Below are positions 2 through 57,068 of a stretch of 64,000 nt of DNA, piece by piece. Below the pieces are notes generated by a model, which worked only from the letters and a program-made list of their open reading frames with translations, did not search any database and was not told where the DNA came from. The position numbers and the translations under genes are program-made. The first letter of the stretch is position 1, and each line of letters opens with the position of its first letter. Origin of the DNA: Gammaproteobacteria bacterium (GTDB lineage Bacteria; Pseudomonadota; Gammaproteobacteria; Eutrophobiales; Eutrophobiaceae); contig CBDCDS010000003.1 in the NCBI GenBank assembly GCA_965215365.1, positions 1,344,001-1,408,000 on the forward strand, given 5' to 3'.

Positions 2-3000
2 GTGGCCACCTCGAACGGCACGGCGACGGCGGGCAGCGACTACACGGCGACGACGACCACGCTGACCATCCCGGCCGGGAGCACGAGCGTCATCTTCGCG
101 GTGCCGACGACCACCGACAGCACCTCGGAGTCCGCCGAGACGTTCACGGTGACTCTGTCCAACCCCACCGGCGGCGCCACCATCGACCCCGACGCCGGCG
201 TGGGCACGGGCGCCCTGTACGATCCGGGCGGCACGCTCGTCAATGATGATGCCTCTGCCATTACCTACCAGTATGCAGGCGGTGACACCCGCGGCCAGGC
301 CTGGCGGTCGGTGTCTCGCTCTGGCAGCAGCTACAATAATGACGTCCACATCACCCCGAGACCGGGCGCGTACTTTGACTATACGTTTACCGGCACCGGC
401 GTAGACCTTATCTCGGAAACCGACTCCCGCTACGCGGAGGTTGACATCTACCTGGACGGGAACAAAGTGGCGCGCGCATCGCTGGTCAGCGCCAGCCGCG
501 CCGGGAAAGTGCTGGTCTACAGCGTGCGCGGGTTGAGCGCAGGGAGCCATACCATCAAAGGTGTAAGGGTGGGGGTTAGCGTTAACAAGAATTTTGTGGT
601 AGATGGCTTTTTGGTGCATACGAGCGATGCCTTTTTTGCCGATAGGTTAAAGCCCACCGGCTTAACTGCCACGCCGGGCGACAAGCAGGTGACGTTGAGC
701 TGGCTCGATCCGTCCAACAGCGCCATCACCAAGTACCAGTATCGCCAGGGCGCCGGCACGACCGTCGTCTGGGGTGGCTGGACCGACATCGCCAACAGTG
801 ACAACACCACCACCTCGCACACCGTGACGGGCTTAACCAACGGCACGGCCTACAGCTTTGAAGTGCGCGCCGTGGTCGGGACGGCAACCGGCGCCGCCTC
901 AGGTGCCGTGAGCGCGACACCGGCCACCCCCAGCACCCTGCCAGAGCTGTCGATTAACAGCGCGACGGCATTAGAAGGCCGCACGGCAAGTTTTACGGTC
1001 ACCCTGTCACGCGCCCACACCGCCGATGTCACAGTACAGGCGGCCACCTCGAACGGCACGGCCACGGCAGGCAGTGACTACACGGCGAAGACGGCGACAT
1101 TAACCATTGCAACCGGCAGCACCAGCGCCACGTTTGACGTGGTCACCACCGACGATGCGGCGGTGGAAGGCACCGAGACCTTCGAGGCGACCTTGGCTAA
1201 CCCGTCTAAGGCCACGCTCAAAAAAGACGGCGACACCGCCACCGCCACCGTTTACGACGGCGACGGCGGGACGCGCTTCGATGTGCCTCGGAATCACTCG
1301 GACGTCACCCGTGGCGGGGGAAGTTGGACATGGGATTTTGGCCGCAACCCCCCCAAATTTGACAACTACGGTAAAAATGGCTACGTCACCGGAGCTAACG
1401 GCGCCTATCTGGAATACGCCTTTACCGGCACCGGGGTGGACTTTATCTCACAGGTTGGCCCGAACCACGGTAATGTGGACATCCATATTGATGGTACCAA
1501 GGTAGCCACCGTGAACTTGTACCAAAGCGGCAGCGTCACCGGCAAGTACGTGGCCTACAGCGTGCGCGACCTGACCGCCGGGGAACATACCATCCGGGTG
1601 ACCAAGCGGTCTGCTACCTGGCTCATCGTGGATGCTTTTATTGTGTACGGCGCCCCCTTGGACTTCGTCACCTGGCACTTACCCCGTGAGCTGCGCTATG
1701 TGAAGGATACGGCCATCCTGGCCCCGACCCGACTGCCTCGGGTCGGCAACGGCGCGGGCACGGTGACTTATGCCTTAACACCGACACTGCCGACAGGCCT
1801 GCAATGGGACGCTGAGGAGCGCACGATTTCAGGCACCCCCACGGTGAACCAGGCGCGCACGCAATACACCATGACGGCGACCGATGCGATAGGTGGTACC
1901 GAGGTCTTTACCTTCCACCTGACAGTGACTAACAAGGACGATAAGCCGACCTTCGGCAGTGAGACGCAAGCCGACCTGTTACTGGTGAAGGATGCGCTAA
2001 TGACCGCGGTCACACTGCCGGTGGCTACGGGCGGCGATGGCACGCTGACCTATCAGTTATTGCCGTTGAAGTGGAGTAACATGGGCTACAACCAGAACGC
2101 GGACCGGGAGAGCAACCAACCCTTAGACTACGCCGGGGTGGCCAACCTGCCGGCGGGGCTCAGCTTTAATGCCGGCACACGGGTGCTGTCGGGCACACCC
2201 ACTGAGAACTGGACGCGCGCCCTTTATACTTTAGTAGCCACGGACGCCGATGGCGACACGGCGGGTCTGAACTTCCATGTGGCGGTGGCAAACGCGTTAA
2301 CCCCGGCCACCAATTCCAGCACTCTGGAGGTCTGGACGGACGATGCACTCAAGCATGTCAACCGCAATGCCACTAAGCCGAGCTCGCCGTCGACCCGCAT
2401 TGACTTACATGCGGCGCGCAATGAGTACGAGAACGGCCAGATAGTGCTACGCAGTGATGCGGATTTGACCATTACCGAAGTGGCGTTTAGTGACCTCACC
2501 AGCGGCAGCAACACGATTGCCGCCAAGGATAACCTTGACTACCGGTTTGTAGAATACCACTCGCCGGTGATGCCGACCCGGACGACCAAGCTGCTCTACC
2601 CGGCTGCTAATCGTCCTGATCCGTTGTCCAATGCCCGCTCGATTGTGGTGCCGGCGAACGTCACCCAACCCATCTTAGTGACGGCGTATGTCCCCAAGGG
2701 GCAGGCGGCGGGCACTTATACCGGCGAGGTGACGGTGAAGGTCAACACCGCCCAGGGGGACCAGACCAAGACCGTGCCCTTGAGCGTTAAGGTCTATGCG
2801 GTGCAGATTCCCGATGCCAAGGACAGCGAGTTCTTACAGTACAACTGGACGGAGACGAACATGTACTCCGTGCGCAATGATGAGGACATGGGGTTTTCGT
2901 ACTACGGGATTTATAAGTACTCCGATGACTGGTGGGGCTTAATGGGCAACATGGCCGACACCATGTCCAAGCATCGTCAGAACATGACCATTGCCTGGAC

Positions 3001-6000
3001 GGTGGCACTGCTGCGCGACGGCGGCAGTAAGGCCAAGTCCGATGGCACGTATGACTGGCAATGGGGGCTGTTCGATAAGTTCATCGACACTTATAACCAG
3101 GGTGGCATGTCGCATTTCGGTGGTGGGCATTTGTCGTTCCACTGGGAGGGCGGCAAACCGCGCAGTTGGGATGCTGCCCGGCATTTCGAGGTGGCGATGC
3201 TCGCGCCTGACGCGAACGGTGAGACGCGCATCGGCGGTGCCGTGGTGCCGAAGTCCACGTCCGATACCGCCGGCACGCGCGCGAACGCCCGGGATTGGCT
3301 CAATGCTTATCTGCCAGAGCTGGACAAACATATTGCTGCGAAGGGCTTACTCGGCGGTGCCAAGCTGCGTGATAAGTGGTTCCAACATCTTGGCGATGAG
3401 CCGGGCGGCAGCACTGATATCCAACAATGGGCGTATATGGCAGACACGCTCAAGGCCAAGGCGCCCAAGATACGTAATTTAGATGCAGCCCAGACCAGCG
3501 TCGAGGGGCTTTTGCAGGATGCCAATGCGGCCCGGGTGAATGCTTGGAGTCCTTACCTGATCGAGTTTGACAAGCGCAAAACCTTATTTGCCCAACAGCA
3601 ACAAGCCGACAAGCCGGTGTTTGTCTATGTGATGTACACCCCCAGGGACAAGAACGACTATAACCGCCTGTTCAACAACCATCTGGTATCGACTTCCACG
3701 CTGTATTGGTATTACTTCCGCCATAACTTAGACGGCAATCTGCACTGGGCACTGAACGTCTGGTCTATTACCGCGGGAGATGCTTCCAAGGGCGATACCC
3801 ACATCGTCTATCCGGACATCGGCGGGCGCACGCTGCGCTCATCGCTGCGCTATGAAGCCGAGCGTGGCGGGCTGGAGGACTTAGAGCTATTAAAGCTGTA
3901 TAAGAAGACCTCTGCCAGCGCGGCTAATACACTGGCTGAGAAGCTCACCACCACGACCCGCACCAACCACAACAAGGATGTGTCAACGTACCGCACTGTG
4001 CGTGCAGAGTTGCTGAGTGCCCTCACCGCCACCGCCCCCCCGGAGCTGTCGATTAACAACGTGGCAGTGACAGAGGGTGCGGCGGCATATTTTACGGTGA
4101 CCCTGTCGGCGGCCCACACCGCTGACGTCACGGTGCGGGCGGCCACTTCGGACGGCACGGCCACGGCGGGCAGCGACTACACGGCGAAGACGGCCACGCT
4201 GACTATTGACGCCGGCGCTACCAGCGCCACCTTCGAAGTGTTGACGACCGCCGACAGTACTACGGAGTCCTCTGGCGAGACGTTCAAAGTCACCCTGTCC
4301 AATCCCGGCGACATTGGCACCATCAAGTCCGGTGCCGGCGTGGGCACGGCCACCCTGTACGACGCGGGAGGCGTGTTTGTCAATGATGATGATAGTGCTG
4401 TCACATATTTGAATCTTAATCCTTTTTGGAAGGATGCTGACCGCTCCAAGGGGGGATTCAACAACTATGATGATGATATCCGCTCCACTAATGTGCAGGG
4501 CATGTACTTTGAATACACGTTTATCGGCACCGGCGTGGATTTTATCTCAGAGACTAACAAAGACCATGGCGAGGTTGACATCTATATTGACACGGCCAAG
4601 GTGGCGCGTGTGTCGCTGCACAGTGCGACCCGCACCGGCAAGGTGCTGGCCTACAGCATGCGTAGGTTGCCTTTCGGGAAACATACTATCCGGGGGGTGA
4701 AGGTGGGCAGCGACGCCGGCAAGTATTTGGTAGTGGATGGCTTTTTTGTTTATGGGACGCCTAAACCCGCGGGGCTGACCGCGACACCAGGCGACAAGCA
4801 GGTGAAACTCACCTGGGCCGACCCGTCAGACGGTGCCATCACCAAATACCAGGTTCGTCAGGGCACTGGCACGACCGTCGCCTGGGGTGCTTGGGCGGAC
4901 GTTCCCAGCAGCTCGGCCACCACCACCTCGCATACCGTGACCGGCCTGACCAACGGCACGCAATATAGCTTTCAGGTGCGCGCCGTGGACGGGACGGCAA
5001 CCGACGTGGCTTCGCACACCGTGACCGCAACACCGGCAGGCTACGAGCTGTCGATTAACAGCGTGGGAGTGACGGAGGGAGCGGCGGCGTATTTTACGGT
5101 GAGCCTGTCACGCGCCCACACCGCTGACGTCACGGTGCGGGCGGCCACCTCGGCCGGCACGGCCACGGCGGCCAGCGACTACACGGCGACGACGGCCACG
5201 CTGACCCTTGCCAAGGGAGAAACCAGCGCCACCTTCGCGGTGCCGACGACCGCCGATGCTACTGCGGAGGGCAGTGAGACCTTCAAGGTGACCCTGAGTA
5301 ATCCCACCGGTGGCGCCACCATCGAGCGCGGCGGCGGTGTGGGTACGGCCACCCTGTACGATGGCGGCGAGGATGGCGGCGGCATGCTCGTCAATGATGA
5401 TGACAGTGCTATTGACTACCAGAATGGCAGTAGCTCATTCGGCCGTGGGTGGTTTTCTGGTGCTCGCAATCCGAGATACTTCAATAGCTACAATGATGAC
5501 ATTCAAGGCGCCACGAGACCGGGCGCCTACTTTGAATATACGTTTGCCGGCACCGGCGTGGATTTTATCTCGGAAACTAGTAGCACCTACGGGAAGGTTG
5601 ACATCTACCTTGACGAGACCAAGGTAGCGCGCGTGTCGCTGCACAGTGCCACCCTAACCGGCAAGGCGCTGGCCTACAGTGTGCGCGGGTTGCCTTTCGG
5701 GGAATATACCATCAAGGGTGTGAAAGTGGGGAACATCGCCGAGGTGCTGGTGGTAGATGGCTTTTTTGTTTATGGGACGCTCAAGCCCACGGGGCTTACC
5801 GCGGGGGCGGGCGACGGGCAGGTGGTGCTTACCTGGGACAACCCCTCCAACGATGCCATCACCGGCTACCAGTATCGCTGGGGTACGCTCTCGGCCCTCT
5901 CTAGGTCGCATTTTGGGCTCGACTCTTATTTAGAAGCTGTCCGCTGGGGGAATTGGCTGACAATGTCCGGCAGCCTGGACACCACCACGTCACACACGGT

Positions 6001-9000
6001 GCGCTTCCTGACCAACGACACGCAGTACTATTTCCAGGTGCGCGCCGTGGTCGGGGCAGTACCCGGCGCGCCCTCAAATGTCGTATTCGCCAGACCACGG
6101 ACGGCCGGCATGAACTTCATCACCTGGCATCTGCCCCGTGAAATGCGCTATGTGAGGGGTACGCCGATATTGGCGCCAACCCGACTGCCGCGGGTCCAGG
6201 GTGCCACCGGCGCCGTGACTTATGCCTTAACACCGGCACTGCCGACCGGTCTGGAGTGGGACGATGAGGAGCGTACGATTTCAGGCACCCCCGCCGCAGA
6301 TAGGGCGCGTACGCAATACACCATGACGGCGACCGATACCAACGATAAAATCGGCGAATACACCTTCCACCTGACCGTAGCGGCCACCGACAACAAGCCC
6401 AGCTTCGGCACGACGCAGGCCGATTTGCTATTAGTCAAGGACGCGGCCATGACCGCCGTCACACTACCGGCGGCCACCGGCGGCGACGGCACGCTGACCT
6501 ATCAGTTACTGCCGTTGAAGTGGAGTAACCTGGGCTACAACCAGGGAGAACGGGGGAACAACCAACCTCTGGACTACGCCGGTGTGCCCAACCTGCCGGC
6601 GGGTGTGAGCTTCAATGCCAGCACGCGCGAGCTGTCGGGCAGGCCCACGGCGAACTGGACGCGCGCCTTGTACACGTTGGTGGCCACAGATGCCGATGGC
6701 GACACGGCGGGTCTGAACTTCCACGTGGCGGTGGCGAACGCACTGACCCCGGCTACCGGCTCGAGCGCCCTGGAGGTCTGGACGGATGATGCGCTCAACC
6801 ATGTCAACCGCGATGCCACCCGGCCGAACTCGCCGTCCACCCGCATTGACTTACATGCGGTGCGCAATGAGTATGAGAGCGGCCAGATAGTGCTACGCAG
6901 TGATGCGGATTTGACCATCACCGAGGTGGCGTTTAGTGACCTGACCGATGGCAGCAACACGATTGCTAAGACCCACCTTGACTACCGGTTTGTAGAATAC
7001 CACTCGCCGGTGATGCCGACCCGGGGAGATACGCTACTTTATCCGGCCTCTAATCGTCCCGACCCCTTGTCCAACGCCCGTTCGATTGTGGTGCCGGCGA
7101 ACGACACCCAACCGATACTGGTGACGGTGTATGTCCCCAAGGGACAGGCGGCGGGCACTTACGCCGGCACGGTGATGGTGAAGGTCAACACGGCGCAGGG
7201 GGTTAAGACTAAAACCGTCCCGCTGAGCGTGAAGGTCTATGCCGTGGAGATCCCCGATGCCAAGGACAGCGAGTTCAAGCAGTACAACTGGACCGAGACC
7301 AACATGTTCTCCATCCGCAACGAGGAGGACATGGGCTTTTCGTACTACGGGATTGACAAGTACTCTGATGATTGGTGGGAATTGATGGAGAACATGGCCG
7401 ATACCATGTCGACGTATCGCCAGAACATGGCGGTATCCTGGACGGTGGGTCTGCTGCGCGACGGCGGCAGCAAGGCCAATGTTGACGGCACGTATGAGTG
7501 GGACTGGCGGCTGTTCGACAAGTACATCGACACCTATAACCAGGGTGGCATGAGCCACTTCGGCGGCGGGCATTTATCGTTCCACTGGAACGGGAGGCCG
7601 GGGAGTTTCAGTGGTAAGCATGACTTCCATGTGATGCAGTTGTCTCGCGACTCAGATGGCGAGACGCGTCTTAGCGGCGCATTGGTGCCGACCTCGGCGA
7701 CCGATGCCACTACCACGCGCAAGGCCGCCGCGGACTGGTTGGATGCCTACTTGCCGGAATTGGACAAACAAGTCAAGGCCAAGACCTTGGTCGGCGGCGT
7801 CAAGCTGCGCGACCAATGGATCCAGCACATGGGGGATGAGGCGGGTGCAGGTGCACAATCCCAACAATGGGCTTATATGGCGGACAAGGTCCAATTTCAT
7901 GCACCTGGTATGCTGACCATGGATGCAGCATATAGTCTTGGTTTGCACGACCATGCAACGAAAGTAAAAGCCTGGAGTCCTTGGATCAACATTTTTGATG
8001 AATACAAGGATTTCTATATTGAACAACAAGCCGCCAACAAGCCGGTGTTTGCTTACTACATGTGGTATCCCCGACATCCGTTAATGAACCGCATGTTCGC
8101 TAACCATTTGATCGCGACCTCAATGATCTACTGGTATTACTTCCGCCACAATCTGGCCGGCAATCTGCACTGGGCGCTGAACGTGTGGTCTCTCCCGTTG
8201 ACAGAAACCAAAGACGACAACGGAATCGGTGCCGAAGGCGATACCCACATCGTCTATCCGGACGTCGGTGGGCGCACTCTGAGGTCATCGCTGCGCTATG
8301 AAGCTGAGCGTAACGGGCTGGAGGACCTGGAGATCTTGAAGCGGTACAAGGTGGGGGCACCGAGCGCGGCCAATACGCTGGCCGACGGACTCATAAACCC
8401 CAACGGCGTCACCGCGGTCCCAAGTTCCGTCAACACCCTTGCCGAATACAACACAAATGTATCAACGTACCGCACCGTGCGTGCCGAGTTGCTGGAGGCG
8501 GTGTCTCCGATGCTCACAGGGCTGACCGTGACACCGGGCGACGGGCAGGTGACGCTGAGCTGGGATGATCCTGGCGATGCCAGCATTGCTCGCTACCAGT
8601 TCGACACGCGCTGCTCCTCGGGCCTCTGGGGCGGCTGGCGGAACGTCCCCGCCTCCAGGGCCACCACTACCACCGCCACGATAAGCGGCTTGACTAACGA
8701 CACGCAGTGCGACTTCCGCATCCGCGCCAGAAGAGGGGGGGAGCGCGGCCCGCCCTCGGCTGTCGTGAGCGCCACGCCGATAGAGTCCCTGCCCTTCGTC
8801 ACCTGGCACCTGCCCCCTGAGCTGCGCTACGTGAAGGGTGAGGAAATCCTGGCGCCGGTGCGCCTGCCGCGGGCCGACACCACGCAGCGGGTGATTTACC
8901 TGCTGAGGGGTCGGTTTTCGGGCACCTTTGCCGGGGACGATTTGCCTGATGGGCTGATTTTCGATGCCGAACAACGCACCATTTCCGGTACGTCGACGAA

Positions 9001-12000
9001 GCGCATGGCGCGTAGGCGCTACGAGCTCATTGCTCGTGCTTTAGACGGTCGGGAGGGACGGTTCAGCTTCCACCTGACGGTGGCTAACAAGGACAACAAG
9101 CCCACCTTCGGCAGTGAGACGCAAGCCGACCTGTTACTGGTGAAGGATGCGCTAATGACCGCGGTCACACTGCCGGTGGCTACGGGCGGCGATGGCACGC
9201 TGACCTATCAGTTATTGCCGTTGAAGTGGAGTAACATGGGCTACAACCAGAACGCGGACCGGGAGAGCAACCAACCCTTAGACTACGCCGGGGTGGCCAA
9301 CCTGCCGGCGGGGCTCAGCTTTAATGCCGGCACACGGGTGCTGTCGGGCACACCCACTGAGAACTGGACGCGCGCCCTTTATACTTTAGTAGCCACGGAC
9401 GCCGATGGCGACACGGCGGGTCTGAACTTCCATGTGGCGGTGGCAAACGCGTTAACCCCGGCCACCAATTCCAGCACTCTGGAGGTCTGGACGGACGATG
9501 CACTCAAGCATGTCAACCGCAATGCCACTAAGCCGAGCTCGCCGTCGACCCGCATTGACTTACATGCGGCGCGCAATGAGTACGAGAACGGCCAGATAGT
9601 GCTGCGCAGCGATGCGGATTTGACCATTACCGAGGTGGCGTTTACCGACCTGAAAGATGGCAGCAACACGATTGCTAAGACCCACCTTGACTACCGGTTT
9701 GTGGAATACCACTCGCCGGTGATGCCGACCCGGACGACCCAGCTGCTCTACCCGGCCGATAATCGTCCTGATCCGTTGTCCAATGCCCGCTCGATTGTGG
9801 TGCCGGCGAACGTCACCCAACCCATCTTAGTGACGGCGTATGTCCCCAAGGGGCAGGCGGCGGGCACTTATGCCGGCGATGTGACGGTCAAGACCACCCA
9901 GGGGGACAAGACCGTCCCGCTGAGCGTGAAGGTCTATGCGGTAGAGATTCCCGACGCTAAGGCCAGCGAGTTCTTACAGTACAACTGGACGGAGACGAAC
10001 ATGTACTCCGTGCGCAATGATGAGGACATGGGGTTCTCATACTACGGGATTTATAAGTACTCCGATGACTGGTGGGACTTAATGGGCAACATGGCCGACA
10101 CCATGTCCAAGCATCGTCAGAACATGACCATTGCCTGGACGGTGGCACTGCTGCGCGATGGCGGCAGTAAGGCCAAGTCCGATGGCACTTATGAGTGGGA
10201 GTGGGGGCTGTTCGATAAGTTCATCGACACTTATAACCAGGGTGGCATGTCGCATTTCGGTGGTGGGCATTTGTCGTTCCACTGGGAGGGCGGCAAACCG
10301 CGCAGTTGGGATGCTGCTCGGCATTTCGAGGTGGCGATGCTCGCGCCTGACGCGAACGGTGAGACGCGCATCGGCGGTGCCGTGGTGCCGACCTCGACGA
10401 GCAATGCCGACGACGAGCGCACGGTGGCCCGGGATTGGCTCAATGCTTATCTGCCGGAGCTGGACAAACATATTGCTGCGAAGGGCTTACTCGGCGGTGC
10501 CAAGCTGCGTGATAAGTGGTTCCAACATCTTGGCGATGAGCCGGGCGGCAGCACTGATATCCAACAATGGGCGTATATGGCAGACACGCTCAAGGCCAAG
10601 GCGCCCAAGATACGTAATTTAGATGCAGCCCAGACCAGCGTCGAGGGGCTTTTGCAGGATGCCAATGCGGCCCGGGTGAATGCTTGGAGTCCTTACCTGA
10701 TCGAGTTTGACAAGCGCAAAACCTTATTTGCCCAACAGCAACAAGCCGACAAGCCGGTGTTTGTCTATGTGATGTACACCCCCAGGGACAAGAACGACTA
10801 TAACCGCCTGTTCAACAACCATCTGGTATCGACTTCCACGCTGTATTGGTATTACTTCCGCCATAACTTAGACGGCAATCTGCACTGGGCACTGAACGTG
10901 TGGTCCATCGGGCCGGCGGGCGGCTCTGAAGGCGATACCCACATCGTCTATCCGGACATCGGCGGGCGCACGCTGCGCTCATCGCTGCGCTATGAAGCCG
11001 AGCGCGGCGGGCTGGAGGACTTGGAACTGTTGAAGCTGTACAAAGCGACCTCTGCCAGCGCGGCTAATACACTGGCTGAGAAGCTCACCACCACGACCCG
11101 CACCAACCACAACAAGGATGTGTCAACGTATCGCACCGTGCGTACCGAGTTGCTGGAGGCTGTGGCCGCCGCCCTACTGCCTAAACCCACGGGTTTTACG
11201 GCGACTCCGGGCGACGAGCAGGTGAAGCTCACCTGGGCTGACCCTGCCGATAACAGAATCACCCGCTACCAGTATCAGCAGCGGGTCGGGAACGCCGATT
11301 GGGGCTCGTGGATTAACATCTCTGGCGCCAACGCGACCACGACCACCTTTACGCGCGCCGGCCTGACCAACGGCACGCAATACAGCTTCCGCATCCGCGC
11401 CGCAAGGGGGCCGGTAGCCGGTGCGGCTTCGGATGTCGTGAGCGCCACACCAATGCCCCTCCCCGAGCTGTCGATTAACAGCGTGGGAGTGACGGAGGGA
11501 GCGGCGGCGTATTTTACGGTGAGCCTGTCACGCGCCCACACCGCTGACGTCACGGTGCGGGCGGCCACCTCGGCCGGCACGGCCACGGCGGGCAGCGACT
11601 ACACCACGAAGACGGCCACGCTGACTATTGCGGCAGGGAGCGCCAGCGCCACCTTCGCGGTACCGACGACCGCCGACAATACTGCCGAGTCTGGCGAGAC
11701 GATCAAGGTGACCCTGTCCAATCCCGCCGGCGGCGCCACCATCAAGTCCGGCGGCGGTGTGGGTACGGTCACCCTGTACGATCCGGGGAGCGAGTTCGTC
11801 AATTATAATGCCCCTGCTGTCAGCTATCAGAATGGCAGTAACACAACAGGCTTGGCATGGTCTTTTGGCACTTTCATCGGGGGAGACTCCAACAGCTACG
11901 TTACCTCTAGGCCGGGCGCTTATTTTGAATATACATTTACCGGCACCGGCGTGGATTTTATCTCGGAGACTAACTCTGACCACGGTGAGGTTGACATCTA

Positions 12001-15000
12001 CCTTGACGAGACCAAGGTAGCGCGCGTGTCGCTGCACAGTGCCACCCTAACCGGCAAGGCGCTGGCCTACAGTGTGCGCGGGTTGCCTTTCGGGGAATAT
12101 ACCATCAAGGGTGTGAAGGTGGGGAGCGATGCCAGCAAATATTTAGTAGTGGATGGCTTTTTTGTTTATGGGACGCTCAAACCCACGGGGCTTACCGCGG
12201 CGGCGGGCGACGGGCAGGTGGTGCTTACCTGGGACGACCCCTCCAACGATGCCATCACCGGCTACCAGTATCGCCAGGGTACACCCCTGTTCTTGCCTTG
12301 GTGGTATTTTGTGTTCGACCCTTATTTAGAACCTGCCCGCTGGGAGGATTGGACCGACATTCCTAGCAGCTCGGCCGCCACCATTTCGCACCTTGTGACC
12401 GGCCTGACCAACGGCACGCAGTACTATTTCCAGGTGCGCGCCGTGGTCGGGGCAACGACCGGCGCGCCCTCAAATGCCGCATCCGCCAGACCACGGACGG
12501 ACGGCCTGAACTTCATCACCTGGCACCTGCCTCCTGAGTTTCGGTATGTGAATGGCGAGGCGATATTGGCGCCGACCCGGCTGCCGCGGCTCGATGGCGG
12601 CACGGGCACGGTGACTTATACCTTAACACCGGCGCTACCCACGGGCCTGAAATGGGACGCTGAGGAGCGCACGATTTCAGGCACCCCCGCCGCAGATATG
12701 GGTCGCGCGGTATACACCATGAAGGCAACCGATGCGAACGATGAGTCCGCCGCCTACACCTTCCACCTGACCGTAGCGGCCACCGACAACAAGCCCAGCT
12801 TCGGCACGACGCAGGCCGATTTGCTATTAGTCAAGGACGCGGCCATGACCGCCGTCACACTACCGGCGGCCACCGGCGGCGACGGCACGCTGACCTATCA
12901 GTTACTGCCGTTGAAGTGGAGTAACCTGGGCTACAACCAGGGAGAACGGGGGAACAACCAACCCCTGGACTACGCCGGTGTGCCCAACCTGCCGGCGGGT
13001 GTGAGCTTCAATGCCAGCACGCGCGAGCTGTCGGGCAGGCCCACGGCGAACTGGACGCGCGCCTTGTACACGTTGGTGGCCACAGATGCCGATGGCGACA
13101 CGGCGGGTCTGAACTTCCACGTGGCGGTGGCGAACGCACTGACCCCGGCTACCGGCTCGAGCGCCCTGGAGGTCTGGACGGATGATGCGCTCAACCATGT
13201 CAACCGCGATGCCACCCGGCCGAACTCGCCGTCCACCCGCATTGACTTACATGCGGTGCGCAATGAGTATGAGAGCGGCCAGATAGTGCTACGCAGTGAT
13301 GCGGATTTGACCATCACCGAGGTGGCGTTTAGTGACCTGACCGATGGCAGCAACACGATTGCTAAGACCCACCTTGACTACCGGTTTGTAGAATACCACT
13401 CGCCGGTGATGCCGACCCGGGGAGATACGCTACTTTATCCGGCCTCTAATCGTCCCGACCCCTTGTCCAACGCCCGTTCGATTGTGGTGCCGGCGAACGA
13501 CACCCAACCGATACTGGTGACGGTGTATGTCCCCAAGGGACAGGCGGCGGGCACTTACGCCGGCACGGTGATGGTGAAGGTCAACACGGCGCAGGGGGTT
13601 AAGACTAAAACCGTCCCGCTGAGCGTGAAGGTCTATGCCGTGGAGATCCCCGATGCCAAGGACAGCGAGTTCAAGCAGTACAACTGGACCGAGACCAACA
13701 TGTTCTCCATCCGCAACGAGGAGGACATGGGCTTTTCGTACTACGGGATTGACAAGTACTCTGATGATTGGTGGGAATTGATGGAGAACATGGCCGATAC
13801 CATGTCGACGTATCGCCAGAACATGGCGGTATCCTGGACGGTGGGTCTGCTGCGCGACGGCGGCAGCAAGGCCAATGCTGACGGCACGTATAAGTGGGAC
13901 TGGCGGCTGTTCGACAAGTACATCGACACCTATAACCAGGGTGGCATGAGCCACTTCGGCGGCGGGCATTTATCGTTCCACTGGAACGGGAGGCCGGGGA
14001 GTTTCAGTGGTAAGCATGACTTCCATGTGATGCAGTTGTCTCGCGACTCAGATGGCGAGACGCGTCTTAGCGGCGCATTGGTGCCGACCTCGGCGACCGA
14101 TGCCACTACCACGCGCAAGGCCGCCGCGGACTGGTTGGATGCCTACTTGCCGGAATTGGACAAACAAGTCAAGGCCAAGACCTTGGTCGGCGGCGTCAAG
14201 CTGCGCGACCAATGGATCCAGCACATGGGGGATGAGGCGGGTGCAGGTGCACAATCCCAACAATGGGCTTATATGGCGGACAAGGTCCAATTTCATGCAC
14301 CTGGTATGCTGACCATGGATGCAGCATATAGTCTTGGTTTGCACGACCATGCAACGAAAGTAAAAGCCTGGAGTCCTTGGATCAACATTTTTGATGAATA
14401 CAAGGATTTCTATATTGAACAACAAGCCGCCAACAAGCCGGTGTTTGCTTACTACATGTGGTATCCCCGACATCCGTTAATGAACCGCATGTTCGCTAAC
14501 CATTTGATCGCGACCTCAATGATCTACTGGTATTACTTCCGCCACAATCTGGCCGGCAATCTGCACTGGGCGCTGAACGTGTGGTCTCTCCCGTTGACAG
14601 AAACCAAAGACGACAACGGAATCGGTGCCGAAGGCGATACCCACATCGTCTATCCGGACGTCGGTGGGCGCACTCTGAGGTCATCGCTGCGCTATGAAGC
14701 TGAGCGTAACGGGCTGGAGGACCTGGAGATCTTGAAGCGGTACAAGGTGGGGGCACCGAGCGCGGCCAATACGCTGGCCGACGGACTCATAAACCCCAAC
14801 GGCGTCACCGCGGTCCCACGTTCCGTCAACACCCTTGCCGAATACAACACAAATGTATCAACGTACCGCACCGTGCGTGCCGAGTTGCTGGAGAAAGCAA
14901 CTAAAGCCCTCGCCGGCCTGCCGGAGCTGTCGATTAACAAAGTGGCGGTATTGGAAGGCCGCCCGGCGCGCTTCACGGTGAGTTTGTCGGCGGCGCACAC

Positions 15001-18000
15001 TGCCGATGTCACGGTACAGGCGGCCACCTCGAACGGCACGGCCACGGCAGGCAGCGACTACACGGCGAAGACGGCGACATTAACCATTGCAACCGGCAGC
15101 ACCAGCGCCACGTTTGACGTGGTCACCACCGACGATGCGGCGGTGGAAGGCACCGAGACTTTCAAGGTAATCCTGACTAACCCGTCTAAGGCCACGCTCA
15201 AAAAAGACGGCGACACCGCCACCGGCAGCGTTTACGACGGCGACGGCGGGACGCTCTTCGATGTGCCCGAGACCGACTCGTCTGTCAGCCTCACCAACGG
15301 CACCAACCCTGGGGGTGTGTGGTACTGGAATAAGACGCGTGACGCCAGCCTTAATAACCACAATGACAATGCCTATGGCGTGGGTGATAGCACCGGTGGC
15401 GGTAATGGCGCGTATCTCGAATACACCTTTACCGGCACCGGGGTGGACTTTATCTCACAGAGAGGCCCGAACCACGGTGATGTGGACATCCATATCGACA
15501 ACACCAAGGTGGCCACCGTGAGCTTGTACCAAAGCGGCAGCGCCGCCGGCAATTACGTCGCCTACAGCGCGCGCGACCTGACCCCCGGGGAGCACACCAT
15601 CCGGGTGACTAAGAAGTCCGGCAACTACCTGATCGTGGATGCTTTTACTGTGTATGGAATCCCCTTGAGCTTCGTCACCTGGCACCAGCCTTATGATCTG
15701 CGTTACGTGAAGGATACGGCGATATTGGCGCCGGTGCGGCTGCCGCGGGTGAGTGGCGGTACGGGTATGGTGGTCTATACCTTGTCGCCGGAACTGCCGA
15801 CGGGACTGAAATGGGACGCCAAGGAGCGCACCATCTCAGGCGCCCCCACTGTGAACAAGAGGTACACGCGCTACACCATGACGGCGACCGACGAAGCCGG
15901 TGTTACCGCCACCTATCCCTTCAACCTGACGGTGGCCGATACGGATAACAAGCCCAGCTTCGGCACCAAGACGCAGGCCGACCTGCTGTTAGTCAAAGAC
16001 ACGGCCATGACCGCGGTGACGTTGCCGGAGGCCAGTGGCCTCCACCGCCCGCTGACCTATCAGTTATTGCCGTTGAAGTGGAGCAACCTGAGCTACAACC
16101 AGAACAAGGACCGGGAGAGCAACCAACCCTTAGACTACGCCGGGGTGGCCAACCTGCCGGCGGGGCTCAGCTTTAATGCCGGCACACGGGTGCTGTCGGG
16201 CACACCCACTGAGAACTGGACACGCGCGCTCTATACCTTAGTCGCCACAGACACCGATGGCGACACGGCAGCGCTGAACTTCCATGTGGCAGTGGTGACC
16301 GCACTGACCCCGGCCACCGGCCCGAGTACCCTGGAGGTGTGGACGGACGATGCGCTCAAGCATGTCAACCGAGATGCCACCAAGCCGAACTCGCCGTCGA
16401 CAGACATCGCCTTACATGCGGCGCGCAATGAGTACGAGAACGGCCAGATAGTGCTACGCAGTGATGCGGATTTGACCATTACCGAAGTGGCGTTTAGTGA
16501 CCTCACCAGCGGCAGCAACACGATTGCCGCCAAGGATAACCTTGACTACCGGTTTGTAGAATACCACTCGCCGGTGATGCCGACCCGGGCGACCGATGTA
16601 CTCTACGCGGCCAATAATCGCCCTGATCCCTTATCCAATGCCCGCTCGATTGTGGTGCCGGCGAACGTCACCCAACCCATCTTAGTGACGGCGTATGTCC
16701 CCAAGGGGCAGGCGGCGGGCACTTATGCCGGCGATGTGACGGTCAAGACCACCCAGGGGGACAAGACCGTGCGGCTGAGAGTGAAGGTCTATGCGGTAGA
16801 GATTCCCGACGCTAAGGCCAGCGAGTTCTTACAGTACAACTGGACGGAGACGAACATGTACTCCGTGCGCAATGATGAGGACATGGGCTTTTCGTACTAC
16901 GGGATTTATAAGTACTCCGATGACTGGTGGGACTTAATGGGCAACATGGCCGACACCATGTCCAAGCATCGTCAGAACATGACCATTGCCTGGACGGTGG
17001 CACTGCTGCGCGACGGCGGCAGTAAGGCCAAGTCCAATGGCACGTATGAGTGGGAGTGGGGGCTGTTCGATAAGTTCATCGACACTTATAACCAGGGTGG
17101 CATGTCGCATTTCGGTGGTGGGCATTTGTCGTTCCACTGGGAGGGCGGCAAACCGCGCAGTTGGGATGCTGCTCGGCATTTCGAGGTGGCGATGCTCGCG
17201 CCTGACGCGAACGGTGAGACGCGCATCGGCGGTGCCGTGGTGCCGACCTCGACGAGCAATGCCGACGACGAGCGCACGGTGGCCCGGGATTGGCTCAATG
17301 CTTATCTGCCGGAGCTGGACAAACATATTGCTGCGAAGGGCTTACTCGGCGGTGCCAAGCTGCGTGATAAGTGGTTCCAACATCTTGGCGATGAGCCGGG
17401 CGGCAGCACTGATATCCAACAATGGGCGTATATGGCAGACACGCTCAAGGACAACGCGCCCAAGATACGTAATTTAGATGCAGCTCAGACCAGTGTCGGG
17501 GGGCTTTTGCAGGCTGCCAATGCGGCCCGGGTGAATGCTTGGAGTCCTTACCTGATCGAGTTTGACAAGCGCAAAACCTTATTTGCTGACCAGCAGGCGC
17601 TCGACAAGCCGGTGTTTGTCTATGTGATGTACACCCCCAGGGACAAGAACGACTATAACCGCCTGTTCAACAACCATCTGGTATCGACTTCCACGCTGTA
17701 TTGGTATTACTTCCGCCATAATGTGGACGGCAATTTGCACTGGGCGCTGAACGTCTGGTCCATCGGGCCGGCGGGCGGCTCTGAAGGCGATACCCACATC
17801 GTCTATCCGGACATCGGCGGGCGCACGCTGCGCTCATCGCTGCGCTATGAAGCTGAGCGCGGCGGGCTGGAGGACTTGGAGCTATTAAAGCTGTACAAGA
17901 AGACCTCTGCCAGCGCCGCCAACACACTGGCCGAGAAGCTCACCGGTACGGGTGATCGCACCAACCACAACAAGGATGTGTCAACGTACCGCACTGTGCG

Positions 18001-21000
18001 TGCAGAGTTGCTGGAGGCTGTGGCGCAGGGGCAGGCGCCCACAGGGCTGACTGCAACGCCAAGCGACAAGCAGGTGACGCTCACCTGGGTCGCCTCCTCC
18101 AACAGCGCCATCACCAAGTACCAGTATCGCCAAGGCACCGGCAGTCCCGTCAAATGGGACGATTGGACGGACATTCCCAGCAGCTCGGCCACCACCACCT
18201 CACACACTGTGAAGGGCCTGACCAACGGCACACAGTACAGTTTTGAGGTCCGCGTCGTGGTCAGGACGGCAACCGGCTTGGCCTCGGACATCGTGTCCGC
18301 TACGGCGGGAGTTTACGAACTATCGATTAACAACGTGGCGGTATTAGAAGGCCGCACGGCGCGTTTCACGGTGAGCTTATCTGCGGCATACACCGCCGCC
18401 GTCACAGTACAGGCGGCCACCTCGGATGGCACGGCCACGGCGGGCAGCGACTACACGGCCAAGACGGTGACATTAACCATTGCGACCGGCAGCACCAGTG
18501 CCACGTTTGATGTGGCCACCAGCGCTGACGACGCAGTAGAAGGCACCGAGACCTTCGAGGTGGCCCTGACCGGCCCGACCAATGCCACGCTCAAGACAAA
18601 CAGTGACACCGGCACGGGCACCCTTTACGACGGCGATGGCGGGACGCTCTTCGATGTGCCTGAGACTGACTCGTCTGTCAGCCGCAACGACGGGGGCGGG
18701 AGAGAGTGGTATTGGAATGGGAATCGTTCGGGCTTTAATAACTACGGAGACAATATCTACGCCATTGGCAGTAGCAGTGGTGCCGGTAACGGCGCCTACC
18801 TGGAATACACCTTTACCGGCACCGGGGTGGACTTTATCTCACAGATTGGTCCTAACCACGGTGATGTGGACATCCATATCGACGGTACCAAGGTGGCCAC
18901 CGTGTCCTTGTACCAAAGCGGCAGCACCACGGGCAAACACGTGGCCTACAGCGTGCGCGACCTGACCCCCGGGGAACACACCATCCGGGTGACCAAGCAG
19001 TCCGGTAAATACCTCGTGGTGGATGCTTTTACGGTGTATGGCACCCCCTTGGACTTCATCACCTGGCACTTGCCCCCTGAGCTGCGCTATGTGAAGGATA
19101 CGGCCATCCTGGCCCCGACCCGACTGCCTCGGGTCGGCAACGGCGCGGGGACGGTGACTTATGCCTTATCACCGGTGCCACCCACGGGCCTGAAGTGGGA
19201 TGCTAAGGAACGCACGATTTCAGGCACCCCCACCGCAGATAAGGCGCGCACGCAATACACCATGACGGCGACCGACAAGGCTAGTAGTACCGCCACCTAT
19301 ACCTTCCACCTGACGGTAGCGGCCGCGGATAACAAGCCCACCTTCGGCAGTAAGACGCAAGCCGACCTGTTACTGGAGAAGGATGCGCTGATGACCGCGG
19401 TCACACTGCCGGTGGCTACGGGCGGCGATGGCACGCTGACCTATCAGTTATTGCCGTTGAAGTGGAGTAACATGGGCTACAACCAGGGGGTACGAGAGAA
19501 CAACCAACCCTTGGACTACGCCGGGGTGGCCAACCTGCCGGCGGGTGTGAGCTTCAATGCCACCACGCGCGTCCTCTCGGGCACACCCACGGCGAACTGG
19601 ACACGCGCGCTCTATACCTTAGTCGCCACGGATGCCGACGGCGACACGGCGACGCTGAGCTTCCATGTGGCGGTGGTGCCCGCACTGACCCCGGCCACCG
19701 GCTCGAGCGCCCTGGAGGTATGGACGGATGATGCGCTGAGCCATGTCAACCGCGATGCCACCAAGCCCAATTCCCCGTCGACGGACATTGATTTACATGC
19801 GGCGCGCAATGAATATGAGAGCGGCCAGATAGTGCTGCGCAGCGATGCGGATTTGACCATTACCGAGGTGGCGTTTGACGACCTGACCGATGGCAGCAAC
19901 ACGATTGCTAAGACCCACCTTGACTACCGGTTTGTAGAATACCACGTGCCGGTGATGCCGACCCGGACGACCCAGCTGCTCTACCCGGCCGATAATCGTC
20001 CTGATCCGTTGTCCAATGCCCGCTCGATTGTGGTGCCGGCGAACGTCACCCAACCCATCTTAGTGACGGCGTATGTCCCCAAGGGGCAGGCGGCGGGGAC
20101 GTACACCGGCGATGTGACGGTCAAGGTCAAGACGGCGCAGGGAAATCAGACCAAGACCGTGCCCTTGAGCGTGAAGGTCTATGCGGTGCAGATTCCCGAT
20201 GCCAAGGACAGCGAGTTCTTACAGTACAACTGGACGGAGACAAACATGTACTCTATCCGCAATGAAGAGGACATGGGGCGCTCGTACTACGGGATTGACA
20301 AGTACTCCGATGACTGGTGGGACTTAATGGGGAACATGGCCGACACCATGTCCAAGCATCGTCAGAACATGACCATTGCCTGGACGGTGGCACTGCTGCG
20401 CGACGGCGGCAGTAAGGCCAAATCCGATGGCACGTATGAGTGGGACTGGCGGCTGTTCGATAAGTTCATTGACACTTATAACCAGCGCGGCATGACCCAC
20501 TTCGGCGGCGGGCATTTGGCGATGCGCTGGAACGGGCAGCCGGGGAGTTACGATGCGGCCTTGGATTACCAGGTGGGGTTGCTGTCTCGCGACGAAAACG
20601 GTGAGACGCGCATGGGTGGCGAGAAGATTCCGCTCTCGATATTATTTGAATTTTTGTATCCCGACGCTCGGGCCTGGCTGGATGCCTATCTGCCGGAATT
20701 GGACACCCATATTGCGGCCAAGACCTTGGTCGGCGGTGCTAAGCTGCGCGATAAGTGGTTCCAACATCTCGGTGATGAGCCGAAGTCGAGTCAACTCCCG
20801 CAATGGGCGTATATGGCGGACATCCTCAAGGGCAACGCGCCCAAGATACGTAATTTAGATGCAGCTCAGACCAGTGTCGGGGGGCTTTTGCAGGCTGCCA
20901 ATGCGGCCCGGGTGAATGCTTGGAGTCCTTACCTGATCGAGTTTGACAAGCGCAAAGACAAATTTGCTAAACAGCAACAGGCCGACAAGCCGGTGTTTGT

Positions 21001-24000
21001 CTATGTGATGTACACCCCCAGGGACAAGAACGACTATAACCGCCTGTTCAACAACCATCTGGTATCGACTTCCACGCTGTATTGGTATTACTTCCGCCAT
21101 AACTTAGACGGCAATCTGCACCGGGCGTTGAACGTCTGGTCCATCGGGCCGGCGAGCGGTGCCGAAGGCGATACCCACATCGTCTATCCGGACATCGGCG
21201 GGCGCACCCTCAGGTCATCGCTACGCTATGAAGCTGAGCGCGGCGGGCTGGAGGACTTGGAGCTGTTGAAGCTGTATAAGGCGACCTCTGCCAGCGCGGC
21301 CAACACACTGGCCGAGAAGCTCACCACCACGACCCGCACCAACCACAACAAGAATGTATCGAAGTACCGCACCGTGCGTACCGAGTTGCTGAAGGCTGTG
21401 GCTGTGGCCGTCCCCGCCGTCACCGCCACCGCCACCGATACCGCCGCCACCGAAGACGACACCAGCGCCACGGCCACTTTCACGGTGGTACTCGACACCG
21501 AGCCGTCCGCCGACGTCACCGTCACCGTCACCGCGCCCACGGGCTTAGATCTCGACGGCCCGGACAGCGCGAAGACCTTCACCTCCAGTGAAGACCTCAC
21601 CTTCACCGATAGCACCTGGAGCACCGCCCAGACGGTCACCGTGCGCGCCCCCGACGACAGCACCGACAGCCCCAGTCAACGGGAACTGACCGTCACCTAC
21701 GCCGCCACCTCGACCGACACCGATTACAGTGGCCTTAACGGCACTGCCGCCACCGTCACCGTCACGGATAATGACGCCACTGAGGTGACCTTGGCCGGTA
21801 GCGCCGGGGATGTCACCGAGGGCGGCACCAAGGAGTTCACGGTCAAGTTAAACCGCGGCTTGGTCAACGGCGAGGTCCTGCCTGTGCCGCTGACGGTTGC
21901 CACCGGTAATGGCACGGCGACTCGCAACACCGACTACACAATAGCTTGCCCCAACGCGCCGCCCGTCGGCGTGACGTGTAATGACCTGAACACTGCGACC
22001 ACTCCCACCGTGACCTTCACCGGCCCCTCCACCGGCGCCACCGCCACTGAGATCACCTTGACCCTCACCGCAACGACCGATTCCATCGCCGAAGCTGGCG
22101 GGGAGTCCGTCACCCTTGGCCTCGGCACGCTTAACACCAGCTCTGGCACCGGCTTGGACGGCGGCGCTTTGGGCACCGACAGTCTGGCGGACTTCACCAT
22201 CTTCGACCCGGCCATCGCTCTGGCCGCCCCCACCAGCTTCACCGCCACGCCGGGCGACAAGCAGGTGACGTTGAGCTGGGATGATCCGTCCAACAGCGCC
22301 ATCACCAAGTATCAGTATCGCCAGGGCACCGGCACGACCGTTGTCTGGGGTGGCTGGAAGGACATCCCCAACAGCGATGCCGATACCGCCTCGTACACGG
22401 TAACGGGCTTAACCAACGGTACCGCCTACAGCTTCCAGGTGCGCGCGGTCGCCGGCACCACCCTCGGCGCGGCCTCGGCCACCGTCACCGCCACCCCTAA
22501 TACCGAGGCGCAGGCGCAGACCGTCACGTTCGTAAGCAATCTGGATAGCTCACGCGACGATGCTAATCCATATGACGTGCGCCAAGCGCAATCCTTCACT
22601 ACGGGTGCTGAAAGTGCCGGCTATCTCCTGTCGTCCGTCCGCATCTATCTCCATGGAGATGCCTCTGGCAGTGGGACCCCTGTGGTCGTCATCCGCGCAA
22701 ACAGCAGTGGCGACCCCGGTGACATCTTCGTCACCCTGACCAACCCGGGCAGCTTTTCCAGTAGTGCGGGCCTGGCCACCTTCACCGCCCCGGCCGACAC
22801 GACGCTCGCCGCGAGCACCACCTACTGGGTGGTCATCAACGACTCAGGCGGTAGAAAGCTTTCCTGGCAGGCGGCCGACAGCAACACATCTACGGGACAG
22901 TCCGGCTGGAGCATGGGTGCTTCAAAGTATCGAGCTAGTGACTCTTGGAAAACTAGTGGCGCATATCTATCAATGGACCTCCGCGGCACGTTCAAAACGA
23001 CCACCCCCGCCAACACCGCCCCCACAGTGGCCAATACCATCCCCGACCAGGAGGCACTCACCGGCCAGGCCTTCAGCTACCAGTTCCCGGCCAATACCTT
23101 CAACGATGCCGACAGTGGCGACACGCTCACTTACACTGCCACGCTGCTCAGCGGCACGGCGCTGCCCGCCTGGCTGAAATTTGCCCCCGACACCCGCACT
23201 TTCTCTGGCACACCGAAACAGATAAACGTCGGCAAGTTTACGGTGAAGGTCACCGCCACAGACGGCGACGCCGCTTCGATCAGCGACAATTTTGTTATTA
23301 CCGTGACGCGCACAGAGGCCACGGTACAGTTCTCGCAGGCAACCAATTCCATTACCGAGGGCAACGCCGCCACCGTGACCCTGCAACTGTCCAAGGCGGT
23401 GGCCAAAGTGGTGGACATCTACCTCAAGGTCACTGCCGGCACTGCCACTTCGGGCACCGACTACACCGCCGGCACGGTGACCGCGCCCGACAGCACCGCC
23501 GGCACCTACAGGGTCACTATTGCGGCGAGTGCCACCTCGGGCTCAGTGAGCATCCCCACGACTGACGACTCGGCCTTCGAGGGCAGCGAGTCCTTCACTT
23601 TGAGCATCCATCAGATTGCCAGCGACAGTGTCATCGGGCGCGGCACCGCCACCACGCAAACCGTGACCATCGAGGACAACGAGCCAACCGTGGTGTTATC
23701 ACAAACGAGCCGCACGGTCACCGAGGCCACCGGCAGCGGGCGCACCGCACAATACACCGTCAAGCTGCCCGCCCAGCCCACGGCCGATGTCACCGTCGCG
23801 GTGGCTAGTGCTGCGGTCACCGTGGCCACGGTGTCCCCCACCAGCCTGACCTTCACTGACAGCACTTGGAGTACGGCGCAAACCGTCACCGTCACCGCCG
23901 TGGACGATAACCTCTACCAGAGCACCGACCGCACCACGACTATCACCCATACACCGTCCTCGACCGACACCCGCTTCACGAGCGGCCCCCACCCCAGCGT

Positions 24001-45099: not shown

Positions 45100-45573
45100 G
45101 TGAAAACCCTTTCAGTTGTTCAATCGACCCTTGTTGCAGCACTGCTCGTTGTTTGTCTGACAGGCTACGGGCTACGGGTTTACAAGTTGGTCACCCTGCC
45201 GCCACCGCACTCGGACATGAACCCGGCGCCGGCTGCGACTGTGCCGGCGGATGCCATGTTGCCTGCGGCTATTGCGCAACTCAGTTTGTTTGGTGAGCGC
45301 CGCCAGGCAACCGTGACACCCGCACCCATTCAGCTTGACAATGTCCCCAAGACAAAACTGGATTTTACGTTGAACGCAGTGTTTACCGATACCGAGCCGG
45401 CGCGTGCCAGCGCAGTCATCGCCACGGGTAACAACAGTCAGGCAAAACGCTATTTTGCTGGTGAATTATTACCGGGGAACGTGATACTATTCGCACTATA
45501 CCCGGATCATGTGATATTGAAGCGGGGCGAAACGTTGGAACAGTTGGCTTTTCCGAGAGACAGAACCCAATGA
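45100..45573 (+). CDS. gspC: Type II secretion protein C (TM + HR domain, no PDZ)
   Basis: N-terminal TM segment, 'LFG', 'PKTKLDFTLNAVF..SAVI..YFAGELLPG..YPDHVILKRG..EQLAFP'. Lies immediately upstream of the secretin. Confidence 0.85.
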   Translation: MKTLSVVQSTLVAALLVVCLTGYGLRVYKLVTLPPPHSDMNPAPAATVPADAMLPAAIAQLSLFGERRQATVTPAPIQLDNVPKTKLDFTLNAVFTDTEPARASAVIATGNNSQAKRYFAGELLPGNVILFALYPDHVILKRGETLEQLAFPRDRTQ

Positions 45574-45607
45574 GTAGGTGTGACAGTCCGTTTCACAAGC
45601 CGGTGTA

Positions 45608-48157: not shown

Positions 48158-48169
48158 CCGACATGATGG

Positions 48170-49714: not shown

Positions 49715-49743
49715 ACCCGCGCGGGCTTGAGCTTTCGGTAGTT

Positions 49744-51398: not shown

Positions 51399-51422
51399 GG
51401 GGCGTAAAAATCTCGTGGAGAA

Positions 51423-51486: not shown

Positions 51487-51500
51487 GGCGGGGACGGATA

Positions 51501-55419: not shown

Positions 55420-55427
55420 CACCCGAT

Positions 55428-57062: not shown

Positions 57063-57068
57063 AACCAC

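Follow-up and report, generated by a model that had tools for sequence, protein, structure and literature searches.

Can a single secreted polypeptide carry a whole series of catalytic domains of the same glycoside hydrolase (GH) family? This question is raised by a stretch of 64,000 nucleotides (nt) from a gammaproteobacterium (assembly GCA_965215365.1, contig CBDCDS010000003.1, positions 1,344,001 to 1,408,000), called here the window. A gene of 55.5 kb enters it from upstream (C3:1330310-1385803; host genome G000, 2.73 Mb in 3 contigs, GC 0.579). From its likely start (MMYRT...), 13.7 kb upstream of the window, this gene encodes a protein of 18,497 amino acids (aa), 1.94 MDa and pI 5.1. An initial annotation of the window had seen in it a covalent array of six GH123/DUF4091-like enzymes. 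The analysis reported here indicates that the gene probably encodes one secreted protein with nine intact GH123 modules, most likely cleaving beta-linked N-acetylgalactosamine (beta-GalNAc), exported by a type II secretion system (T2SS) and specific to its lineage.

The six modules of about 570 aa that had been placed at 2324-21395 were all recovered at 2324-21391, the announced limits matching the start of the first (M4) and the end of the last (M9). Their lengths, with boundaries set by motif, are 559-575 aa. It had been suspected that more might lie upstream, and three others (M1-M3) do stand there in the same frame, which brings the total to nine. Each window module contains the Asp-Glu pair (GDEP or GDEA) and the C-terminal S.LRYE..R.GLED.E.L motif attributed to it, the latter in the form SSLRYEAER.GLEDLE.L; M2 has ADEP in place of GDEP. 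Pfam profiles match all six window modules: three GH123_cat (PF13320) and three Glyco_hydro_123_N_2 (PF22680) domains were found in window 2-12001 (E 5.2e-85), as many in window 12002-24001 (E 2e-82) and as many again in the upstream 4,564 aa (E 2.2e-79). In a six-frame search of the genome, all nine modules match GH123_cat at 89-112 bits, for a cut-off of 23.1. The frame that joins them is uninterrupted from C3:1330280 to the stop codon at C3:1385803 (18,507 codons). The mass above 1.4 MDa proposed at first therefore holds for the window part of the protein (13,933 aa, 1.45 MDa) and not for the whole chain.

Sequence and structure comparisons agree on the family of these modules. M4 aligns over its full length with NgaDssm (PDB 8k2j) at E 1.2e-38, against 5e-11 or weaker for the other solved groups; its HLGDEP falls on HLADEP of NgaDssm and its D358-E359 on the catalytic Asp-Glu (DE) pair. 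According to the accessible part of the study describing NgaDssm (PMC11087588; the same part is meant at each later mention), the Asp of this motif stabilises the 2-acetamido group, the Glu is the acid/base and DE mutants are inactive. The motif lies at an equivalent position in all five groups, GH123 having been reconstituted to take in Groups 1-4; 94% of 734 DUF4091 sequences conserve it, and every tested DE-bearing enzyme was active (PMC11087588). The AlphaFold2 prediction, which covers M4 only, is of high quality (pLDDT 92.4, pTM 0.94) and consists of a beta-sandwich followed by a (beta/alpha)8 barrel in which D358-E359 directly follow strand 352-357. This is the GH123-like TIM barrel with DE at the active site that the initial annotation had predicted. 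Compared with the PDB by Foldseek, this model retrieves GH123-family structures at all of ranks 1-22, with 8k2j first (E 3.9e-44, TM 0.80/0.85). By sequence and by Foldseek rank, the modules are thus closest to the Group-3 subfamily, a placement made without a tree. The proposed family assignment stands, refined from classic exo-acting GH123 enzymes to Group 3, whose members release oligosaccharides and monosaccharides alike (PMC11087588).

The catalytic residues are retained throughout the array. D358, E359, Y435, W462, G471 and Y132 are invariant in the 58 members of an alignment that comprises M4, four more modules and 53 single-domain relatives. All nine modules keep D99, D358, E359, Y435, G471, Y496 and R509, and eight of them W475. 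The seven further residues described as common to all groups (NgaLy D95, W115, Y392, G427, W431, Y466 and R478; PMC11087588), mapped by inference from motif order, are kept for 6/7 in M1-M8 and for 5/7 in M9.

Protein identity between modules ranges from 68% to 99.5%, the other eight being 69-95% identical to M4. By their sequences, the modules sort into at least five types, distinguished by the loops that follow the catalytic strands: M1, M4, M6 and M8 form one type (92-95% mutual identity), M5 and M7 a second (99.5%), and M2, M3 and M9 are singletons. Mean column variability is 0.145 in the N-terminal sandwich versus 0.269 in the barrel, where the variable segments (M4 359-368, 435-447, 483-489 and the 274-324 hairpin region) directly follow catalytic strand motifs. 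In barrel enzymes, the loops after the catalytic strands line the substrate site. All 55 pairs formed by the nine modules and two modules of a paralogue (see below) were compared by the Nei-Gojobori method. The dN/dS ratio is 0.16-0.37 in 54 of them, the near-identical M5/M7 pair giving no estimate, and dS reaches 0.77 within the array and 1.37 to the paralogue modules; gene conversion among copies could blur these figures. Judged from these ratios, the modules are under purifying selection: with dS up to 0.77 and low dN/dS, the copies are old enough for decay to have occurred, yet they are intact. Together with the DE pair and most family-invariant residues kept in all nine, this makes a covalent multi-enzyme array, as first proposed, the best reading of the predicted modules.

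The enzymes are embedded in a scaffold whose domain order was established from profiles derived from the giant protein itself and from Pfam. The N-terminus MMYRTAGFAHRPALAGLLLSVGVVLAVSGLL looks, by eye, like a Sec signal peptide. It is followed by a head of about 760 aa, by DUF7402 and F5/8 type C domains and by a lectin-like domain. The middle consists of nine units, each made of a pair of He_PIG Ig-like domains and a GH123 module, with fn3, Calx-beta and CE2_N-like beta-sandwich domains between them in varying order. The same He_PIG subtype stops four residues short of the module in eight of the nine units, the He_PIG of M3 being more divergent. One spacer, between M4 and M5, is detailed in Table 1; the remaining ones are made of subsets of its domains. 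The C-terminal part comprises four fn3 domains, eighteen repeats of 280 aa, two Calx-beta domains and a C-terminus without RTX repeats.

The array of 840-nt repeats has a GC content of 0.69 versus 0.58 for the genome. Its units 2-13 are 100% identical in DNA, with exact period identity across 9,837 nt, and since twelve identical units extend over about 10 kb, the repeat copy number in the assembly may be uncertain. The composition of these repeats also produces a spurious minus-strand open reading frame (ORF) of 4,568 aa (25511-39217). As for the head domain (740 aa), it has no Pfam or NCBIfam match, and the Atlas gave unnamed clusters only. Its model, built on a seven-sequence alignment, is poor (pLDDT 62.5) and weakly resembles GH36, GH101, GH129 and GH31 structures, at TM of only 0.33-0.38 in Foldseek. 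The head may be a further, uncharacterised glycosidase, which is a lead rather than a finding. One of the six database proteins that share it is labelled 'alpha-galactosidase-like' by its source.

Table 1. Features of the window around the GH123 array (positions counted from the first nucleotide of the window)
Feature	Position	Strand	Basis or details
Window part of the giant gene	2..41803	+	single open frame, 13,933 codons, 1.45 MDa
He_PIG Ig-like pair immediately before M4	1667..2311	+	self-derived profiles, Pfam He_PIG counts
GH123 module M4, 564 aa	2324..4015	+	GDEP nt 3392; LRYE nt 3845
Example of inter-module spacer: Calx-beta, CE2_N-like beta-sandwich, fn3, Calx-beta, CE2_N-like	4058..5788	+	Pfam, self-derived profiles
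He_PIG pairs before M5-M9	~5927-6757, 8615-9466, 12341-13153, 15542-16318, 19058-19699	+	self-derived profiles
GH123 module M5, 575 aa	6770..8494	+	GDEA nt 7832; LRYE nt 8291
GH123 module M6, 559 aa	9479..11155	+	GDEP nt 10532; LRYE nt 10985
GH123 module M7, 575 aa	13166..14890	+	GDEA nt 14228; LRYE nt 14687
GH123 module M8, 561 aa	16331..18013	+	GDEP nt 17387; LRYE nt 17840
GH123 module M9, 560 aa	19712..21391	+	GDEP nt 20771; LRYE nt 21221
Four fn3 domains, C-terminal of the enzyme array	24035..25171	+	self-derived profiles
Eighteen tandem Ig-like repeats, 280 aa / 840 nt each	25499..40447	+	profiles, script-based repeat analysis
Two Calx-beta domains, conserved C-terminal tail	40781..41413	+	profiles, Pfam
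RTX-repeat protein, 1,051 aa, PPC domain and 14 RTX nonapeptide stretches	41883..45038	+	profile search
Type II secretion operon (GspC, D, E, F, H, J, K, L, M identified)	45100..55928	+	profile search
Amino-sugar catabolism: BcrAD_BadFG-type kinase-like, PIG-L-type de-N-acetylase, glucosamine-6-P isomerase/deaminase family	56082..58754	+	profile search
Two MFS transporters	58808..61428	-	profile search

The neighbourhood of the giant gene is also informative. On the upstream side, a sulfatase gene and a gene for a GH29-type alpha-L-fucosidase accompany the end of a TonB-dependent receptor gene; downstream are the genes listed in Table 1, among them a T2SS operon that holds the sole T2SS-L match of the genome. 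In a scan of named genomes, its GspE is 57-63% identical to that of marine Pseudomonadales-type Gammaproteobacteria. Such neighbours would be expected for an enzyme releasing N-acetylhexosamine, presumably from a glycan that is both sulfated and fucosylated.

Two congeners (same genus), G006 and G003, whose GspE are 90% and 77% identical to that of the host, show the same layout, i.e., a giant ORF, an ORF of about 1,000 aa and the T2SS. Their giants are of about 14,000 aa in G006 and 13,397 aa in G003 (G003:C1:1424976-1437998 region). Compared with the protein described here, the heads share 74% (G006) and 53% (G003) identity over about 1,200 aa and the tails 74% and 55% over about 330 aa. The middles are unlike this protein's and unlike each other: Big_12 repeats (27 stretches in the three pieces scanned), fn3, Calx-beta and He_PIG domains in G006; DUF5703_N, six FG-GAP repeats and fifteen He_PIG domains in G003. 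No match to M4 was found in either genome. As the congeners share head, tail and T2SS and lack GH123, the array is an insertion specific to this lineage within a conserved giant exoprotein. The head proper (first ~760 aa, C3:1330310-1332709) is kept in the giants of these two congeners and in six database proteins, and it occurs in 3 of the 22 other genomes of the genus. The ORFs that follow the congener giants, of 1,108 aa (G006) and 1,027 aa (G003), stand at the place of the RTX-repeat protein, with which they were compared by size and position.

The host genome itself holds a paralogue, P0012 (C3:1680116-1692586, 4,149 aa), with the same head and two GH123 modules; its first, promoter-proximal 3.96 kb are 97.8% identical to the giant gene. 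Its tail is odd, and beyond it come a Mu-F-like fragment, AAA_22 ATPase genes and an 817-aa Calx-beta ORF. The paralogue has the appearance of a copy cut short by mobile DNA. The whole 2.7-Mb genome encodes 13 GH123 domains. Two more distant GH123 genes (C3:107637-112973) adjoin a gene for a TonB-dependent receptor with fused fn3 domains. One of the two is short, at 376 aa, and because the genome match there contains an in-frame TAG, it may be a pseudogene.

Taken together, these elements suggest the following scenario. The giant protein would cross the inner membrane by Sec, via its N-terminal signal peptide, and the outer membrane through the adjacent T2SS. Each module would be a complete enzyme (N-terminal beta-sandwich and (beta/alpha)8 barrel) cleaving beta-linked N-acetylgalactosamine by substrate-assisted catalysis, the Asp orienting and stabilising the 2-acetamido group and the Glu acting as acid/base, as in solved GH123 enzymes. 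The products would be Group-3-like, i.e., single GalNAc and short oligosaccharides, and 4-sulfated GalNAc could be tolerated; on the 4-methylumbelliferyl (4MU) substrate GalNAc4S-beta-4MU, the hydrolysis rate of NgaDssm reaches 184% of that with GalNAc-beta-4MU (PMC11087588, Table 1). The whole chain could behave as a long multivalent enzyme filament attacking a polymeric glycan that bears beta-GalNAc and is probably sulfated and fucosylated. The freed sugars would be taken up via the TonB-dependent receptor and the MFS transporters and consumed through the products of the downstream kinase, deacetylase and deaminase genes. As for the origin of the array, GH123 modules would have been inserted, then repeatedly duplicated, within a giant exoprotein that has its head and tail in common with the congeners.

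Several observations weigh against this interpretation. The position of NgaLy W115, a structural Trp conserved in all groups and required for folding (PMC11087588), is occupied by Leu in the nine modules. In M9, the substrate-facing Trp that corresponds to NgaLy W431 is replaced (W475R, HRALN for HWALN). Three residues that contact the substrate in Group 3 are not kept either: NgaDssm W204 is replaced by Met in the nine modules and L485 by Ala, and there is no counterpart of the H479 loop (positions given with an inferred numbering offset of 23), so the substrate or the affinity may differ from those of NgaDssm. The secretion route is read from adjacency and synteny alone. Among the public runs listed as containing the sequence, none is an RNA run. 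The continuity of the chain depends on one assembly, the public contigs (at most ~800 nt) being too short to bridge modules. Finally, the giant protein is absent from the results obtained with a library of 1.84 billion representative proteins; this library may under-represent giants, which weakens any claim of uniqueness. M9 is also divergent just ahead of the DE motif and, from its sequence, could be the first of the nine whose function is lost or altered.

The alternative that best survives these facts, and that nevertheless appears unlikely, is that the modules are active on something other than beta-GalNAc, either as beta-N-acetylglucosaminidases or hexosaminidases or as strictly endo-acting enzymes on another polymer. 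Group 2 enzymes accept N-acetylglucosamine (GlcNAc) as well as GalNAc, and those of Group 1 release oligosaccharides only (PMC11087588). The identity with NgaDssm is only 26%, the missing H479 loop and the Met and Ala found for W204 and L485 could open the cleft, and the downstream catabolic genes are generic for N-acetylhexosamines. However, the Group 3 match (E 1.2e-38) is far ahead of those to the other solved groups, and all characterised members of Groups 2-4 and of classic GH123 cleave the p-nitrophenyl (pNP) substrate GalNAc-beta-pNP (PMC11087588).

It is more doubtful still that the modules are catalytically silent, lectin-like domains by which a giant adhesin would hold beta-GalNAc glycans. 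The rest of the protein is adhesin-like (He_PIG, fn3, Calx-beta, eighteen Ig-like repeats), and the congener orthologues, apart from their heads, show binding or structural Pfam domains only. The Leu found in place of the structural Trp in all modules, the W475R replacement in M9 and the loss of Group-3 contact residues would also agree with silence. Against this, the DE pair, Y435, G471, Y496 and R509 are kept in 9/9 modules, and the persistence of the acid/base Glu across a dS of 0.77 argues against pure binding, which would not need it. The prevalence of the DE pair among DUF4091 sequences and the activity of all tested DE enzymes (PMC11087588) point in the same direction, and the adjoining amino-sugar catabolic genes fit sugar release.

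The last alternative concerns the assembly, in which paralogues or strain variants could have been stitched or over-expanded into one frame. The giant gene is rich in repeats, identity between M5 and M7 reaches 99.5%, the twelve identical C-terminal units could have a wrong copy number and the short public contigs end at repeats. These contigs come from public runs of three studies, which contain near-identical or ~5%-diverged sequence in 28-30 of 30 bins (X1 30/30, X3 30/30, X5 29/30, X6 28/30), and their apparent joints map to other repeat copies. Such an artefact is nonetheless very improbable: the frame stays open over 55.5 kb and is maintained across every junction, near-identical sequence recurs in the three studies as just described, a diverged second copy with two modules (P0012) exists elsewhere, and ORFs of 13,000-14,000 aa are found at the locus in the congeners too, whose assemblies are single contigs. 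Moreover, only four blocks of at least 1 kb at >=90% identity occur inside the array, the longest being of 3.75 kb, and apart from M5/M7 the modules differ by 5-32% in protein and have distinct spacers. Because of this divergence and these spacers, long reads would be able to place the modules. In run X6 (2021 study), window 2324-12000 is ~5% diverged and some joints are unlike the present assembly; to judge from this run, related strains may carry a differently arranged array.

The nine-module secreted enzyme thus being the preferred interpretation, its rarity can be considered. The search of the 1.84-billion-protein library, made by HMMER with M4, gave 2,181 relatives. When 157 listed relatives were re-scanned with the module profile, two complete modules were found only in P0012, the paralogue of the same genome; the other rows with two stretches correspond to one split domain. 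The nearest outside protein, with a DUF4091 domain, belongs to a Colwellia metagenome-assembled genome (42% identity), Paenibacillus proteins coming next. A word-based search of proteins of 988-2,820 aa found seven matches of at most 36% identity, each with a single GH123. The same search among 1,381 candidates of 5,499-17,499 aa found none, which is weak evidence because shared 5-residue words are needed. Six-frame searches found no module in 40 relatives, 22 of them of the same genus, and one weak single match in 400 genomes drawn from the class. A scan of named genomes with the module alignment, from which the host genome was possibly left out, gave 33 pattern matches, none of them confirmed. 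A phrase-based search of the literature returned no paper describing multiple GH123 or DUF4091 domains in one protein.

Known proteins with several catalytic domains include insect chitinases, which have four or five GH18 domains. Of 40,946 bacterial cellulases, xylanases and chitinases covered by one survey, 217 have more than one GH domain, and the highest count given in its accessible part is three domains, in 16 proteins (PMC4928363). For GH48, the catalytic domain is present twice in 2.8% of cases, according to the accessible text of another study (PMC11238990). The count of nine is therefore far above the copies per chain reported in the surveys and databases examined.

Comparison with characterised systems delimits what is new. 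NgaDssm (8k2j/8k2k), from a deep-sea sediment metagenome (PMC11087588), shares with the modules the two-domain fold and the HL(G/A)DEP, YP, LHW and (L/I)R.EA motifs; it is a single-domain enzyme, crystallised as a chain of 542 residues, whereas nine modules are found here in one chain of 18,497 aa. Classic GH123 enzymes (BvGH123 5l7r, CpNga123 5fqe, NgaP) have the same fold and DE-based substrate-assisted mechanism and occupy Foldseek ranks 3-20, but they are distant from M4 (E 5e-11, 14-20% identity) and have a pocket-shaped site and one catalytic domain each. Multi-catalytic glycoside hydrolases, such as CelA (GH9-GH48) or ChiW (two GH18), also join their catalytic domains covalently, via carbohydrate-binding modules or Ig-like linkers; the survey cited above reports at most three GH domains (PMC4928363), against nine of one family here.

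Giant proteins are known from other contexts. The accessible part of a preprint (10.1101/2023.11.21.568195) describes in Omnitrophota proteins of more than 10,000 aa with hydrolase domains, encoded beside gspD/E/F-like genes, with proposed roles in attachment and carbohydrate degradation. They belong to another phylum and carry mixed single domains (glycosyltransferase, GH, peptidase, methylase) rather than a tandem array of one family, and GH123 is unmentioned in that part of the text. The statement in the initial annotation that giant adhesins are usually non-catalytic consequently fails as a strict rule, Omnitrophota giants carrying hydrolases (10.1101/2023.11.21.568195).

The giant RTX adhesins of Gammaproteobacteria that depend on a type I secretion system (T1SS), of the LapA, SiiE and BapA type, are huge and have long runs of Ig-like and Calx-beta domains. 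By contrast, the present protein has an N-terminal signal peptide and nine GH123 modules and adjoins a T2SS, not a T1SS. Its assignment to these adhesins was considered and rejected: RTX repeats were not found in its last 500 aa, where only Calx-beta matched, they stand in the separate downstream gene, and the neighbouring system is a T2SS. The kind of enzyme is already known; what is new, as architecture, is that nine copies are joined covalently in one array, that this array has diversified and that it was inserted into a conserved, T2SS-linked giant scaffold.

A wider interpretation, held tentatively and less likely than its contrary, is that this protein family works as a 'cargo rack', with a conserved head and tail, a dedicated T2SS and a species-specific middle. 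The head would consist of an uncharacterised, possibly GH36/GH101-like domain together with DUF7402 and discoidin domains. Here, GH123 would have been amplified to nine copies and diversified in its active-site loops, giving several related specificities per chain and a cell-tethered, covalent counterpart of the cellulosome directed at a sulfated, fucosylated beta-GalNAc glycan (animal-host matrix or mucin).

Glycoside hydrolases nearly always have a single catalytic domain, and those with two or three are rare enough to be studied for synergy. Nine intact copies of the same family in a 1.94-MDa chain constitute a natural experiment in enzyme multivalency, which raises the question of whether tethered active sites improve the attack on polymeric or surface-bound glycans and keep the products near the cell. 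The protein may also be a ready panel of beta-GalNAc-directed specificities, and such enzymes are wanted for glycolipid and glycan analysis. Furthermore, the comparison with congeners shows how an adhesin-like giant scaffold can gain catalytic cargo, and the association of giant proteins with type II secretion now also has a gammaproteobacterial example.

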